IMG/VR virus record: IMGVR_UViG_2734482778_000013
Location: 1-35,527 of that record
Length of the DNA: 35,527 nt
Origin: a virus
Lineage: Duplodnaviria; Heunggongvirae; Uroviricota; Caudoviricetes
Direction: 5' to 3' (one strand)
Part shown: positions 6,356-35,527 of the stretch, one piece after another
How positions within the stretch are numbered: position 1 is the first letter of the stretch
Layout: every line of letters starts with the position of its first letter
Program-made: the position numbers and the translations under genes
The notes under the pieces: generated by a model
Told to the model about the DNA's origin: nothing
Seen by the model: the letters and a program-made list of their open reading frames with translations, nothing else
Database searches by the model: none

Positions 6356-6672
6356 AGTATGCCGTTCTCACAAAAAAACCGCTTGCCATGCCGCAATCAG
6401 TCAGGTTACATTTCCGCTGCACCTCATAAAACGGGTGCCGGGATTGGAACCCCGCACACTAACAGAGCGCACAACCGCGCCAGCGGTTTTTTTGTGCGTA
6501 CCGTATCGCCACGTCTTTTTCGCGTCAGAATTATGGTGGGGCGTACAGGGCCAGCATCAGCTGGGCCGGGTCCTCTGTTAGCCGGTAGTTCCAACCCTGT
6601 ACGTCTCACCACCCCGAGCTTGGAACCTCTGGATGGTGAGTTTTCAAAACTGACTAACAGAGAGGCCACACC

Positions 6673-10246: not shown

Positions 10247-11206
10247 ATGAAAATTTGTATCGACGACGGCTCCACCAACATCAAGCTGGCATGGACTGAG
10301 AACGGCGAACGCCGCAACGCCATCAGCCCGAACAGCTTCAAGTCGGAATGGTCTGCGCCGTTCGGTGGCACGCAGCCCGCGAACTACATGCTTGATGGTG
10401 TGCGCTATGGTTTTGATCCGGTCAGCGATCGCTTTGTCCAGACGACCGACACGCAATACCAGTACAGCGATGTGAATGTCATTGCCATTCATCACGCGCT
10501 GGTCAAATCAGGCATCACGCCACAGGAGGTGGATGTGGTTGTCACCCTGCCACTGAGCGAGTATTTCGACACAAACGCACAGCCGGACATGGCCAACATC
10601 AACCGCAAAAAAGCGAACGTCATGCGCCCGGTGGAGTACCAGAACGGCGAAGCATTCACTATCCGTAACGTACGGGTTATGCCTGAATCCATTCCGGCTG
10701 GCTTTAAAGCACTGGCCGACATGAGTCCGTTTGAATCCCTGCTGATTGTGGATTTGGGCGGAACCACGCTGGATGTGGCAAAGGTTCAGGGGCAGCTGGC
10801 AGGTATCAGCCAGGTGTTTTGCGATCCACACGTAGGCGTTTCTCTGATGGCCGATGCCGTGCTGTCGGTGATGGCCACCAACGGTATGCGCACCAGTCAC
10901 CACATCGCCAATACCATTATCGAACATCGCCACGATGAAGCCTGGCTGCGCCAGCACATCCACAATGACGCGCATTACGCCAGCCTGATGGCAGTTATTC
11001 GTGAAAAGGAAGAAACACTGAAACAACGCGTGATCCGCGCGCTGGCGGGTTTTTCGGGTTACGGGCGGGTGATGGTTGTAGGTGGAGGAGCGGAGATTGT
11101 GGCACCCGCTATCTGCGAAGCCTGCGGAGTTAATGCGACTTTCATCGCGGACGGGGTGCCACAGTTTGCTCTGGTTAATGGGCTGTACGCAATGGACCAG
11201 GAGTAA
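10247..11206 (+). CDS. parM: ParM/StbA-family actin-like segregation ATPase
   Basis: Strong resemblance along the whole length to plasmid R1 ParM as recalled (IDDGSTNIKL..., YSDVNV..HHAL, VMPESIPAG, LIIDLGGTTLD, GGGAE, LVNG); AAGGAAAAG RBS. Confidence 0.85.
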   Translation: MKICIDDGSTNIKLAWTENGERRNAISPNSFKSEWSAPFGGTQPANYMLDGVRYGFDPVSDRFVQTTDTQYQYSDVNVIAIHHALVKSGITPQEVDVVVTLPLSEYFDTNAQPDMANINRKKANVMRPVEYQNGEAFTIRNVRVMPESIPAGFKALADMSPFESLLIVDLGGTTLDVAKVQGQLAGISQVFCDPHVGVSLMADAVLSVMATNGMRTSHHIANTIIEHRHDEAWLRQHIHNDAHYASLMAVIREKEETLKQRVIRALAGFSGYGRVMVVGGGAEIVAPAICEACGVNATFIADGVPQFALVNGLYAMDQE

Positions 11207-11210
11207 ATCA

Positions 11211-11525
11211 ATGACGACACCAACCAGACGGATAAGTTTCTATCTGAAGCCCACCGTCGTCAAGAGCGAACGGGAGGCGTGCAGTTACCTCGACAGCCTG
11301 CCAGCCTCCGAACGCAGCCGCGCACAACGCGCGGCTTTTCTGGCCGGACTGGCTCTTATAAAACGCACCCCCGCGTTGGCGTATTCGCTGGCAGAATGGT
11401 CAGAAGACGAAATACGGATGCCACCGCTACCAGTACAGCCTGAAAAACCGGCGCAACCAGCAGCAGACAGCGCCCCCCATATGCAGCAGGTGAAAAAGAA
11501 TATTCAGGCGTTTTTCCCGAAGTGA
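11211..11525 (+). CDS. parR: ParR/StbB-family centromere-binding adaptor
   Basis: N-terminal RHH-like region ISFYLKPTVVKSEREACSYLDSLPASERSRAQRAAFLAGLAL parallels R1 ParR as recalled; GGAG RBS; directly downstream of parM. Confidence 0.75.
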   Translation: MTTPTRRISFYLKPTVVKSEREACSYLDSLPASERSRAQRAAFLAGLALIKRTPALAYSLAEWSEDEIRMPPLPVQPEKPAQPAADSAPHMQQVKKNIQAFFPK

Positions 11526-31784: not shown

Positions 31785-32331
31785 CGGGGAAGCCATTCTG
31801 TTACGCAACATCACCGTCAGCGCCACCATGCAACTACCGGATAAAGATATGTCCGGACAGTCAACCAGCACCACCAGTGCTCAGCAGGGAAGCAAGGCTA
31901 AAGAGCTGCGTGTATCAGGCGTCATTGATTTTAATGATGAAGCTGTTCTGACCCGTATATTTCAACTTGCAGAAGCCACAGAAAGCAACGGGGCTAAAAA
32001 AACATACCGCATCGCCAACGCTACTGCTAAGGCGATTAATATGCGACAGGGTGTTTTTTCGGGCGGTATTGATGCAACGGAACAACAGGGCAAGATGCAC
32101 TGGCAGGTCACCTTTACTCTCAGGGAAAAATTAAGCGTGCCGGAAAAAGCATCGGCACGCAGTGGCTCACAGAAAACAATCGCAAAGCAGCAGACACAGA
32201 ACGGCAGTGAGCAGGCACCGGATAAAGGAATAAATACCCAGGAGACTTTCTGGAAAAATATCAATGATGGTATTGGCTCCGGGCTGGACTGGATTGGCAT
32301 CGGGAGCGTGAAAGAGGAAGGGAAAACATGA
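31756..32331 (+). CDS. Putative tail/baseplate-associated protein
   Basis: 191 aa; ATGA-coupled to downstream hub/spike gene; function from context only. Confidence 0.4.
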   Translation: MTQMIVLALDGEAILLRNITVSATMQLPDKDMSGQSTSTTSAQQGSKAKELRVSGVIDFNDEAVLTRIFQLAEATESNGAKKTYRIANATAKAINMRQGVFSGGIDATEQQGKMHWQVTFTLREKLSVPEKASARSGSQKTIAKQQTQNGSEQAPDKGINTQETFWKNINDGIGSGLDWIGIGSVKEEGKT

Positions 32332-34025
32332 AATTAATCCAACGTTGCATGATTAATGGCGAGCTGGCGGAAATTGCCGATATCAGCCTTGTTCTTACCC
32401 TGAATGCTGCAGGTCGCGGCTTCATTTCTGTTAATAATCTGTCACCGGAAAAAAGCCTTGCCGGCGCAATGATACAAATTGATCTCGGCCGTAATGGTGA
32501 GGCATGGCGCTATTTCTCCGGCTACATTGAGCGCGATCAACCCGCCGAAAATGGCTCACGCCGCCTTTTTATCCGTGAAGCAGCTGCCGTGCTGGATTTT
32601 GATTTCCCCTGCTCCATGCAACATCCAACGTTACGGGATGTACTCGATAATCTGGGTAAACAAAGCGGCATCGTTTTCATCACGCCAGAAGCGGATTATG
32701 TCGGTACACCGACACCTTACATCACCCACAGCGGCAGCGGAGCACAACTGCTCAGCCAGCTGGGGCGAGCATTCAGTATCAGCGATTACGTCTGGCATCC
32801 AATGCCGGACGGTTCCGTATTTGTGGGAAGCGCACCGGATTCACGGTTTGCCAGTATTACCATGCCGGATATTCCGCAACAGTACACTCTCGGGCAAAGC
32901 GGCGGAAACAGCATCGACATCATGTTTATGGAAACTGTGCGACCGGGCGTGAACCTTCCGGCCGGGCGCATTACCCGTGTAGCCCTCAACAACGAGAAAA
33001 TGACCCTGACATGGGAACGCCTTACCGCCACGGGTAGCCCTGTTTCCAAATCACCATTACGCAGACAGATGGAAACACAGTTCCCGGAACTGGCCAGCGG
33101 CACTCTACATACTAGGCTGGCGCGCGTCATTGCACCAACGGAATCCGTCACCCTGGGCGATATTGCCGACAGCTTCCGCCCACGCTACGCCGTCGATGTG
33201 CAACTGCTTGATGAGAACGGCAACGATAAAAGCGATACGCCTGTTTATCCGGCAGTACCACTCCCCGTCCCGATGGCTGGTAGCGAGGCGGGATGTTTTG
33301 CCTACCCGCCGGCAGGCACCATCGTGGAAATATCCAACATTGAAGGGCGACCGGATAAACCTGTCATCAGGCAAATCTTACCCGCGGGCCATAACCTGCC
33401 TGATGTAAAGCCCGGCGAACAGCTGCAGCAACAGCGCGCAGAAGTGTTTCAGCGCGTCACGACTGACGGAAGCTGGCACAGAGAAACTGACCAGCAAATC
33501 AGGGAGCATTCAGCCAGGCGAACCATTAACAGCGATCAGGAAGAACGCACAACAACAACCAGAACAACAACAGTCCAGGCAAACGACATAACCAGTGTTC
33601 TTGGTACCAGTAAGCTGATGACAGGCCAGACAGAACACCTTACTACCGGCAATTATGCGATCGCAGCCGGTGAGCATATCCAGATGGTAGCGCAGGATTT
33701 GCTGACTCAACTCAAAGGGGCGATATCCACCATTGAGCATGACCTCACCGAAAACGTGGGAGGCCGCAGAACATGCAGGGCGGACGGCGGTCTGGAGTTT
33801 ACCGCCCCGACAGTATTTATTGGTCGCGGCGGCTCGCGGGAAAAGTCCGGGCTTAACCTGCTGACGTTGCTGATCGATATTCTGGATCTGATTCAATTGC
33901 TGGCCACACATACAGCAAACCACACCCATAGCAACACAGGCACGCCAATGAACAGCGGCGAACTTGCCGCAGATGCCCTGCAGGCGACGAGTCTGCGCGA
34001 AAAATACGGCGACATTATCGCCTGA
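32328..34025 (+). CDS. Baseplate hub/central spike protein (gpD/gpV-like fusion, VgrG-like)
   Basis: 565 aa; C-terminal His-rich apex-like motif HTANHTHSNTGTPMN; large size and terminal position in tail module. Confidence 0.55.
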   Translation: MKLIQRCMINGELAEIADISLVLTLNAAGRGFISVNNLSPEKSLAGAMIQIDLGRNGEAWRYFSGYIERDQPAENGSRRLFIREAAAVLDFDFPCSMQHPTLRDVLDNLGKQSGIVFITPEADYVGTPTPYITHSGSGAQLLSQLGRAFSISDYVWHPMPDGSVFVGSAPDSRFASITMPDIPQQYTLGQSGGNSIDIMFMETVRPGVNLPAGRITRVALNNEKMTLTWERLTATGSPVSKSPLRRQMETQFPELASGTLHTRLARVIAPTESVTLGDIADSFRPRYAVDVQLLDENGNDKSDTPVYPAVPLPVPMAGSEAGCFAYPPAGTIVEISNIEGRPDKPVIRQILPAGHNLPDVKPGEQLQQQRAEVFQRVTTDGSWHRETDQQIREHSARRTINSDQEERTTTTRTTTVQANDITSVLGTSKLMTGQTEHLTTGNYAIAAGEHIQMVAQDLLTQLKGAISTIEHDLTENVGGRRTCRADGGLEFTAPTVFIGRGGSREKSGLNLLTLLIDILDLIQLLATHTANHTHSNTGTPMNSGELAADALQATSLREKYGDIIA

Positions 34026-34064
34026 ACACCAGACATAAAAGCCACATAAACGCCCCATCACGCA

Positions 34065-34090
34065 ACGCACGGTCCCGGCCGTGCGTTTTC
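34065..34090 (+). terminator. Rho-independent terminator after tail module
   Basis: Stem ACGCACGG / CCGTGCGT with 6-nt loop followed by TTTT. Confidence 0.55.
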
Positions 34091-34750
34091 CTATCCACCA
34101 CCTGATTAATGCGTTCTGCGTGCCATTCTGGCGCTGTATGCACACACTGCGTAAACGGTGTGACGTAAAGCGTGAGGTGACGTAAACCGCGCTACCCCCT
34201 CCAACCCGCGGGTTTTGTGTCGAAACACTTTTTCAGTTTTCTGCCGTGCAAAAATGACCGCCAGCCCGCGCAGCAACTGAGGGAAAAGCGAAGATCTGAA
34301 ATTTCACGCTTTGAAATTTTTTGCAGTTTTCAGAGTGGTTTTTACGATCGAATAAATGGCAGGAGAAAGAAAACAGACTGATATTAAAAGAGTTTTTATG
34401 CTTTACGTGAGACGAGAAACGATCACGAAAGGATCGCATCAAAAAATCGTCAAACAACGAAGCCAGACGCGGCGCGGCCTGCGTAAAATTAAGAGTCAAA
34501 ATTAAACTGAAAAAAGGATCAATACAGTGCATCGATCGCACATGACGATCTACGCAGCAACAGGACAAAAAAACCGGCGCGAACGCCGGCGGAAGCATGT
34601 ATCAAATGCGTGACTGAATAATGTCTGCGGTCGGGAATTTTATATCAAAAGGCTGACAGGCCTCAACGGATTGAAACAAGGGAAAAAACCAGGCTAGAAT
34701 TCGCGCGGGTGCCTTTCGGCTGATGGCTGGAGGGTAAACCCGAAGGCCGG

Positions 34751-34990
34751 ATGTGGAAAGGCCCCGAGTCAACTTTAACGTTAACCCGAGGCCCTAGCCA
34801 TACAACCTTCGCAAGTCGTAGGTTAGCGCCTCTCCGAAAAAGGAGCAAGTGCTATGTCGCAAAAATCGCTAATCGCCATCACCACACTGTGCGTGACGGC
34901 AATCCTCATCATCTGGATGTTGCAGGGTTCGCTCTGCGAGATACGGATGAGCTTCTGGGGAGCGGAGTTTGCGGCGTTCTTACAGTGTAA
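34751..34990 (+). CDS. mok: mok-like overlapping reading frame of hok locus
   Basis: 79-codon ORF starting about 100 nt upstream of the hok-like ORF in a different frame and ending 7 nt before its stop. Confidence 0.4.
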   Translation: MWKGPESTLTLTRGPSHTTFASRRLAPLRKRSKCYVAKIANRHHHTVRDGNPHHLDVAGFALRDTDELLGSGVCGVLTV

Positions 34991-34997
34991 ACCGTAA
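34854..34997 (+). CDS. hok: Hok/Gef-family type I toxin (47 aa)
   Basis: Translation MSQKSLIAITTLCVTAILIIWMLQGSLCEIRMSFWGAEFAAFLQCKP: TM helix followed by SLCEIR...AAF motif as in R1 Hok; GGAG RBS; below ORF-track cutoff. Confidence 0.75.
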   Translation: MSQKSLIAITTLCVTAILIIWMLQGSLCEIRMSFWGAEFAAFLQCKP

Positions 34998-35006
34998 GGA
35001 AACCGC

Positions 35007-35028
35007 GACGGGGGAGCAATCCCCCGTC
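35007..35028 (+). other. Perfect 8-bp hairpin at hok mRNA 3' region (possible fold-back element)
   Basis: GACGGGGG-AGCAAT-CCCCCGTC located 10 nt after hok stop. Confidence 0.45.
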
Positions 35029-35084
35029 AATCGGTTGCCAGGGTAAGGCCGATAAGGCACCCCATCTCACAAACCTGAATGCAA

Positions 35085-35118
35085 AAAGCCCGCAAGATTA
35101 ATCGCGGGCTTTTTATTT
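35085..35118. terminator. Bidirectional rho-independent terminator
   Basis: AAAAAGCCCGC-(loop)-GCGGGCTTTTTATTT: GC stem flanked by A-run and T-run; lies between convergent hok locus and minus-strand ORF. Confidence 0.65.
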
Positions 35119-35140
35119 CAAGAGAGGTGGTTAGCTCTGA

Positions 35141-35527
35141 TTATTCTTCATTTTTCTTTGGCGTTATTACCACAGCGGCGAGCTTATCAATCAGGCGCTC
35201 ACACGCATCAACATCTTTGAGGTTTCTTAATTTGAGCTTTGCAGTTTTAGGCTCATCGTCTCTGGTACAAAGGTGTAATTCAACTTCGACATCATTCCTG
35301 TTCAATAACCCCATAATAACCTCTGCAAATTTTTTCGCCCGTGAGAGCAACTCAAACATAACACTAAGCATATCGGGTGCATTCGCAGAGAAGCAAGTCA
35401 CACGACCTATATCAAATCCATTATTTTTAAAATACTCCTCTATTGAAGAGGAAAGCTCTGAAGGACATGTAATCCTGACACCTGCAAATCGGGACTGATG
35501 TAATGGCGTTCCTTTTAAATATTGCAC
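35141..35527 (-). CDS. Hypothetical protein, N-terminally truncated by window edge
   Basis: Open frame runs to the last base of the window (first codon GTG); stop at 35141-35143. Confidence 0.4.
   Translation of the reverse strand: MQYLKGTPLHQSRFAGVRITCPSELSSSIEEYFKNNGFDIGRVTCFSANAPDMLSVMFELLSRAKKFAEVIMGLLNRNDVEVELHLCTRDDEPKTAKLKLRNLKDVDACERLIDKLAAVVITPKKNEE

Follow-up and report, generated by a model that had tools for sequence, protein, structure and literature searches.

hok/sok is a textbook type I toxin–antitoxin system, and in plasmid R1 (hok/mok/sok, or parB) the regulation of hok is defined by the pairing of tac with fbi, a sequestered ribosome-binding site and a protective 3′ stem-loop (PMC9841398). 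A related locus lies near the right end of IMG/VR virus record IMGVR_UViG_2734482778_000013, a Caudoviricetes sequence whose 35,527 nucleotides (nt) were analysed as a whole and are called the window here. The window is essentially a whole P2-like Escherichia coli prophage with hok as its second-to-last gene, and the locus is very probably an intact type I hok/mok/sok cassette, a self-contained accessory gene that the prophage carries.

Other described systems offer further points of comparison. The closest named chromosomal Hok is that of the hokA/mokA/sokA locus of E. coli K-12, in which IS150 lies between hokA/mokA and sokA. The hokW-sokW pair of the Shiga toxin 2 (Stx2) prophage Sp5 is also of type I, depends on RNase III and Hfq, and aids phage release (PMC8621323). 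A 2026 preprint by Escalera-Maurer et al. lists 32,532 Hok loci in RefSeq, reports a four-fold enrichment of hok in prophages and found 42 of 45 Hok representatives to be toxic; peptides 72_1621 and 72_1589 of its 60%-identity cluster 72 are in the tested list and outside the three non-toxic ones, and it covered no mok, Sok or mRNA structure analysis of this cluster (bioRxiv 10.1101/2025.08.07.668861). The cluster has been catalogued and toxicity-tested, and the prophage enrichment has already been reported.

The locus in the window shares with R1 a toxin in which a transmembrane helix is followed by SLCEIR...AAF (38% peptide identity), a leader frame in the same relative frame, the tac/fbi pairing, a terminator preceded by a 3′ stem-loop, a predicted Sok hairpin with many G-U pairs and a predicted antisense promoter beside the hok ribosome-binding site. 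It differs in being carried by a prophage, R1 being a plasmid, in the length of the toxin (47 amino acids (aa) against 52 in R1 Hok) and in a leader about 30 nt shorter than that of the R1-type locus, the hok ATG being at +148 versus about +170 when counted from the start of the Rfam match. A blastn search (word size 7) of the window against the R1-type hok and K-12 hokA found no DNA similarity; the R1 elements were therefore mapped by position and by means of the Rfam model.

The hok gene and its product

The gene encodes the peptide MSQKSLIAITTLCVTAILIIWMLQGSLCEIRMSFWGAEFAAFLQCKP on the plus strand. The sequence-only reading had proposed a 47-codon open reading frame (ORF) at this place, with a Hok signature, and both proposals hold: the coordinates agree with the ORF list, and the Pfam profile HOK_GEF (PF01848) matches the peptide with 29.3 bits (E value 6.5e-7; gathering cutoff 22 bits), residues 7-45 aligning on profile positions 4-42 of 42. 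PHROG 251, named 'MokW-like host killing', matches it over its full length (E value 5.8e-22). These scores place the family match well beyond chance. The sole NCBIfam matches are HokA and Hok-family models, each under its cutoff.

Residues 6-23 (LIAITTLCVTAILIIWML) are hydrophobic and form a single N-terminal helix. All the residues of the Hok logo are present, namely M1, C13, T15, L27-C28-E29 and E38; their logo equivalents M1, C16, T18, L30, C31, E32 and E41 are conserved in more than 80% of 1264 Hok peptides. The peptide is thus a member of the Hok/Gef family, an assignment supported by profile and logo alike. The ratio of nonsynonymous to synonymous substitution rates (dN/dS) of hok is 0.05-0.15 in comparison with most homologues (ratio of means 0.16), and these low values show that the peptide is under purifying selection. 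The window copy would be expected to be toxic.

The nearest relatives are the peptides of cluster 72, which share the pattern MSQKSL...GSLCE(I/F)R...GAEFAAFLQCK(Q/P), correspond to NCBI WP_000078905/WP_000078916 and belong likewise to PHROG 251. Member 72_1621 (MSQKSLTAITFCVTAILIIWMLHGSLCEIRMSFWGAEFAAFLQCKQ) is 91% identical to the window peptide, which differs in having 47 rather than 46 aa and a C-terminal Pro rather than Gln. HokA of K-12 is more distant, with 40% identity over the full length; its model is the best NCBIfam match, but orthology with hokA was rejected, the HokA equivalog NF007290 giving 35.7 bits against a cutoff of 89. The K-12 locus also differs in being split by IS150 and in adjoining cspA, whereas the window locus is uninterrupted and in a prophage. 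Identity with the characterised hokW was rejected as well: HokW of Sp5 is HokD/RelF-like, has 51 aa and starts with MKQQKAM, as given by the cloning primer, while the window peptide has 47 aa and starts with MSQKSL. The label 'MokW-like' on the window peptide reflects only how the broad PHROG family is named.

The sequence-only reading had stated that several chromosomal hok homologues of K-12 are disrupted by insertion sequences, which stands for hokA (IS150). It had considered an uninterrupted copy notable for this reason, a view that has to be given up: intact hok loci exist in tens of thousands and are the rule, not the exception, and NCBI holds a 100%-identical protein of 47 aa, 'Hok/Gef family protein [Escherichia coli]', on 44 contigs. 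The family is known and already annotated, and this locus is an ordinary member of it that appears functional; its identification is correct but not novel. Its value for annotation is that of a complete small toxin cassette which ORF-length filters miss.

Table 1. Features of the hok/mok/sok cassette and its 3′ neighbour in the window (bp, base pairs)
Feature	Positions	Strand	Description and basis
hok mRNA promoter	34671-34700	+	TTGAAA-18-TAGAAT, sigma-70-like; promoter scan, 10/12 consensus matches
Predicted full-length hok mRNA	34707-35119	+	about 412 nt; 5′ end from promoter and Rfam, 3′ end from terminator
tac-like 5′ element	34707-34721	+	GGGUGCCUUUCGGCU; pairs with 35047-35062 in the minimum-energy fold
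Putative mok ribosome-binding site	34742-34746	+	GAAGG, 4 nt ahead of the ATG; read from sequence
mok-like frame	34751-34990	+	79 codons; overlaps hok and stops 7 nt ahead of the hok stop
Predicted Sok-like RNA	34812-34757	-	about 56 nt: variable 20-nt 5′ tail, 14-bp hairpin 34793-34760, UUU
Predicted Sok promoter	34848-34820	-	TTGCTC-17-TAACCT; -35 at 34848-34843, -10 at 34825-34820; read from sequence
Local hairpin burying the hok ribosome-binding site	34824-34854	+	GGAG 34842-34845 pairs with CUCC 34832-34835
hok toxin gene	34854-34997	+	47 codons; ORF list, Pfam PF01848 and PHROG 251
3′ stem-loop	35007-35028	+	perfect 9 bp, arms 35007-35015 and 35020-35028, GCAA loop
fbi-like 3′ element	35047-35062	+	complementary to the mRNA 5′ end
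Bidirectional intrinsic terminator	35083-35119	both	11-bp stem AAAAAGCCCGC/GCGGGCTTTTT (35083-35114), 10-nt loop, runs of A and T at the flanks
128-aa ORF, last gene of the window	35141-35527	-	convergent with hok, common terminator; PHROG 14142, E value 7e-53

Homologous loci

The comparisons rest on 92 homologous loci, from IMG/VR viral contigs, from E. coli, Salmonella and E. albertii genomes, from phages P88 and phi346 and from an IncI1 plasmid. Among replicons with unrelated flanks the homology is confined to about 34700-35075, a block that, judged from this comparison, is the transcription unit.

A scan of GTDB returned six loci, three of them under implausible host names, and added little diversity. 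The three contigs are assigned to the Planococcaceae metagenome-assembled genome UBA3378 (L004), Vagococcus sp. WN89Y (L005, a 226-kb contig) and Xanthomonas pisi DSM 18956 (L007); they bear an E. coli-type hok with 70-89% peptide identity, and contamination with enterobacterial DNA is the likely source.

Many IMG/VR provirus contigs (L010, L016, L022, L024 and about 40 others) stop exactly 6 nt past the hok stop, the trimmed loci having a length of 2641 with the match at 2501-2635. Gene-based provirus trimming thus drops the 3′ untranslated region of hok, with fbi, the stem-loop and the terminator, and probably removes the true prophage end too. That such trimming often loses the regulatory 3′ region is a further point of interest for annotation.

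The predicted hok mRNA and its structure

The start predicted by the hok promoter, at about 34707, is position 1 of the Rfam hok-leader match; homologues with other upstream sequence have TTGCCG-17-TAGATT at the equivalent place, as read from the alignment. The mRNA would thus begin at 34707 and, given the terminator, end at 35119. Its full-length fold has a free energy of -182.2 kcal/mol (z = -7.65 versus shuffles; z = -6.9 in a further run).

The minimum-energy fold is closed by the tac/fbi pairing, which comprises 15 pairs with a perfect 9-bp core (34707-34715 with 35054-35062). In an alignment of 41 distinct homologues 95.9% of its cells are paired, and one pair varies between G-C, G-U and A-U. 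The 3′ stem-loop is paired in 99.2% of cells of the same homologues, with compensatory changes at two pairs (G-C to A-U in six distinct sequences, A-U to C-G or G-C in two). In the control for both helices together, sliding the partners left 38-67% of cells paired. The structure of the mRNA is therefore conserved along with its coding sequence. The sequence-only reading had noticed a perfect hairpin just 3′ of hok; it is present and perfect, with a stem of 9 rather than 8 bp. By analogy with the mutational study of R1, it is likely the protective end of the processed mRNA (PMC9841398).

In an RNA truncated behind the 3′ stem-loop, the 5′ end pairs instead with 34756-34765. The hairpin burying the hok ribosome-binding site is present in the minimum-energy folds of the full-length and the truncated RNA alike; as in R1 hok, it would sequester this site. 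The terminator sits between the convergent hok and 128-aa genes and gives weak Rfam leader-terminator matches on both strands; it was missed by the terminator scan because its loop is longer than 8 nt.

The Rfam model RF01794 matches the window at 34707-34867 (+) over the full model length, with 38.6 bits and an E value of 1.2e-6. Elsewhere it scores 35.6 bits in the homologue from a Shiga toxin (Stx) phage, 87.2 bits in the R1-type locus (L094:332-503) and 70.1 bits in K-12 hokA. The model is named 'sok antitoxin (CssrC)'; at these four loci its match runs on the strand of hok, beginning at mRNA +1 and ending at the hok ATG, and because of this strand and this end point it models the hok mRNA leader and not Sok. 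RF01794 hits give the toxin strand rather than the antitoxin strand.

The predicted Sok-like antisense RNA

The sequence-only reading had suggested a search for a Sok-like promoter on the minus strand near 34700-34800. A predicted promoter is present on that strand, outside this range, at 34820-34848. Its hexamers show no or almost no variation among 43 homologues, and its layout and its position, abutting the hok ribosome-binding site, are those of TTGCGC-17-TATCCT in the R1-type locus.

The predicted RNA folds with -28.5 kcal/mol (z = -4.5). Its hairpin in the window has -24.1 kcal/mol on the minus strand versus -12.0 on the plus strand, and each of the 16 distinct variants is stabler in its minus-strand form (means -19.4 versus -13.3), because positions that mismatch as C-A on the plus strand pair as G-U on the other. 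Two alternative inner stems exist, and pairing is maintained by each. They were lost in a consensus fold of the region, which gave the outer stem only since MAFFT had misaligned the two, so the sequences were folded one by one. The 5′ tail of Sok is hypervariable among loci. Of the evidence gathered, the strand asymmetry of the hairpin speaks most strongly for a functional minus-strand RNA, whose transcription is predicted.

The overlapping mok frame

A frame of 79 codons overlapping hok in the mok arrangement had been claimed by the sequence-only reading and is found in the ORF list at the same place. Its offset from hok is identical to that of the R1-type locus (counted on the L094 sequence), and the GAAGG upstream of it is nearly invariant in the homologue alignment A2. 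The start lies in a conserved ATGTG at 34751-34755 (columns 45-49 of A2), where an ATG and a GTG overlap in different frames. A length difference of 1 nt in the hairpin region shifts the mok frame among loci, and in the loci with the shorter hairpin the long frame starts at the GTG, two bases downstream, while in the others it starts at the ATG. A frame of 60-79 codons leading into hok from either start is present in 36 of 58 distinct homologous loci; when ATG alone is counted, the number falls to 11. This variable two-start mok frame of the cluster is a modest, only mildly new lead for the regulation of type I toxins.

An R1-like start of mok downstream of the Sok hairpin was rejected: after GAGG at 34787-34790 there is just an out-of-frame ATA, and a reading of the sequence found no in-frame ATG, GTG or TTG downstream of the hairpin at this place. 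The mok start is upstream of the hairpin target, and Sok would therefore cover mok codons 3-21 and not, as in R1, the mok ribosome-binding site and ATG. Given the different start position, the R1 model may not transfer exactly.

The loci without a long overlapping frame include phage P88, an Stx phage and an IncI1 plasmid, and their number suggests that mok-hok coupling may be non-essential in the cluster. It is possible, if rather doubtful, that the leader-frame logic of this Hok cluster differs from that of R1 and that mok is not strictly required for hok translation; refolding of the RNA by itself, or a short leader peptide, might then suffice for it. The mok-less loci, about a third of the distinct ones, nonetheless retain the Hok peptide under purifying selection.

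Location in the prophage

The prophage is P2-like, with P2-family capsid and Ogr/Delta genes. Its last structural gene encodes a 565-aa baseplate protein (PHROG 2258) at 32328-34025, 829 nt from the hok ATG, close to the 0.8 kb from the last tail gene given by the sequence-only reading. In the alignment with E. coli CFIAFB20180511 (L095), position 1 of the window falls on the end of the integrase gene; the gene order there is selD, 5′ fragment of topB, integrase ... baseplate, hok, 128-aa ORF, 3′ fragment of topB. The prophage of this strain lies within topB, which encodes DNA topoisomerase III; the annotated fragments are L095:3385-3768 and 39177-40751.

The baseplate-hok arrangement is also found in related prophages adjoining serS and raiA; the one beside raiA continues past the 128-aa ORF with com and a DNA methyltransferase. 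Because the same tail-hok arrangement recurs at different chromosomal sites, the cassette is cargo of the prophage and not part of the host. The sequence-only reading had left the choice between prophage-edge cargo and flanking chromosome; the former is retained, and the latter was rejected, as the cassette moves with the baseplate gene to serS, raiA and topB and lies in L095 between the topB halves. Its belonging to the prophage helps to locate the right-hand boundary. A site adjoining the shikimate transporter is also used among the relatives.

The cassette occurs also in free phage genomes such as P88, in P88-like phages, in Stx phages, where it follows lom, and in IncI1 plasmids. The Stx-phage locus resembling that of the window has about 82% DNA identity and a 46-aa hok of cluster 72, distinct from hokW.

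Proposed mechanism and probable biological role

Following the R1 hok/sok model, a constitutive promoter would yield the hok mRNA of about 412 nt, which tac-fbi pairing and the local hairpin on the hok ribosome-binding site would keep stable and untranslated. Slow 3′ trimming to the stem-loop at 35007-35028 would then strip fbi, and the 5′ end would re-pair with 34756-34765. In the trimmed RNA mok would be translatable, and ribosomes crossing it would open the hok ribosome-binding site, leading to the synthesis of the 47-aa membrane toxin. Sok, unstable and about 56 nt long, would pair with the mok codons just past the mok ATG and block initiation, probably triggering RNase III cleavage. While the cassette is present Sok would hold Hok off; if the element were lost or host transcription shut off, the supply of Sok would end, the pool of stable mRNA would be activated and the cell would be killed.

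Several points weigh against an intact and working hok/mok/sok cassette. The RF01794 score of the window is under the gathering score of 59, a low value that is due to a divergent leader and not to missing similarity. The Sok promoter hexamers agree with the consensus at 6 of 12 positions only, for which reason the promoter scan did not report them, the U-tail of Sok is only three U long, and Sok and the hok mRNA are both predicted transcripts. PADLOC has no matching model for the hok peptide or for its 128-aa neighbour. As to mok, its ribosome-binding site has a short spacing of 4 nt to the ATG, and its start is upstream of the target of the Sok hairpin, unlike in R1, where it lies inside the target of the Sok 5′ tail. 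The frame stays open in 39% of synonymous resamplings of the hok codons, its 34 leader codons are open in 17% of dinucleotide shuffles, and the joint chance of about 0.07 gives by itself weak support; moreover, in 22 of the 58 distinct loci neither start opens a long overlapping frame. The comparative data described above back the mok frame more strongly than this chance test on the window alone.

The role of the cassette is much less certain than its identity. Selfish stabilisation of the prophage is the most likely one, with lysis help or phage exclusion as a possible secondary effect.

A main role in host lysis at induction, as described for hokW-sokW of Sp5, is unlikely. In Sp5, Sok falls upon DNA damage, Hok arrives at the inner membrane and twice as much phage is released (PMC8621323), an experimental precedent in a prophage, and the location of the cassette after lom in Stx phages and the four-fold enrichment of hok in prophages (bioRxiv 10.1101/2025.08.07.668861) are consistent with a similar use. 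HokW is, however, a different Hok of 51 aa, the cassette is outside the lysis module (holin and M15 peptidase in the homologous prophage L095), and the sequence offers no link of Sok to induction. The prophage here is P2-like, and P2 itself is not known to be SOS-inducible.

Still less likely as the main role is defence by abortive infection, in which a lytic superinfecting phage would stop host transcription, Sok would decay and Hok would kill the cell before the release of progeny. The R1 hok/sok system has been reported to exclude T4. Defence genes are common at prophage ends, the neighbouring 128-aa gene is of a family of unknown function, and a phage-defence role for Hok is cited in the preprint. 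On the other side, the preprint found hok not to be enriched near defence systems (bioRxiv 10.1101/2025.08.07.668861), and no PADLOC model fits the peptide or its neighbour.

The least probable alternative is an intact-looking but silent locus, with Hok untranslated or Sok unmade, decaying as a passenger like the inactivated hok loci of K-12: the break of hokA/mokA/sokA by IS150, the loss of the overlapping frame in 22 of 58 cluster loci, which suggests relaxed constraint on the activation pathway, and a Sok promoter weak by consensus agree with it, but all the elements are intact in the window, the Hok peptide is under purifying selection, the RNA helices are kept with compensatory changes and the 42 of 45 tested Hok homologues that are toxic include members of cluster 72 (bioRxiv 10.1101/2025.08.07.668861).

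Neighbouring genes and other features of the window

The 128-aa ORF that ends the window has no match in Pfam, NCBIfam or PADLOC, and PHROG 14142 is a family of unknown function. In one genome the NCBI pipeline labels this ORF 'RuvC family protein', in another just 'hypothetical protein'. It is absent in the relative adjoining serS.

The spacer between the baseplate gene and hok (34026-34706, 0.68 kb) shows about 93% conservation across 13 related prophages. Its three candidate ORFs are unsupported as genes because their protein is less conserved than the DNA. On its minus strand the promoter scan reported a promoter-like site, TTGAGG-18-TAAAAT, at 34666-34637; the 57 nt that follow do not vary among 12 sequences, and at their end is a GC-rich terminator (34590-34573) with a T run. 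The minus strand at 34666-34566 could therefore encode a small RNA of about 65 nt, divergent from hok; the fold of this candidate is unremarkable (z = -1.4), and it has no match in Rfam.

The early region of the prophage contains two Rfam matches above their gathering scores: the Hfq-binding RNA isrK (RF01394) at 6419-6493 (+), with 72.1 bits, and the C4 antisense RNA (RF01695) at 6529-6616 (+), with 78.5 bits. Together they resemble an RNA immunity module of the P1/P7 type or of the IsrK/anti-Q type, here in a P2-like prophage. Directly after the replication endonuclease gene are genes for ParM and a plasmid partitioning/stability protein (about 10600-11400; L095:13544-14822). Plasmid-type segregation genes are unusual for an integrated P2-like phage; these are 92-95% identical to those of P88-like phages (Xuanwuvirus).

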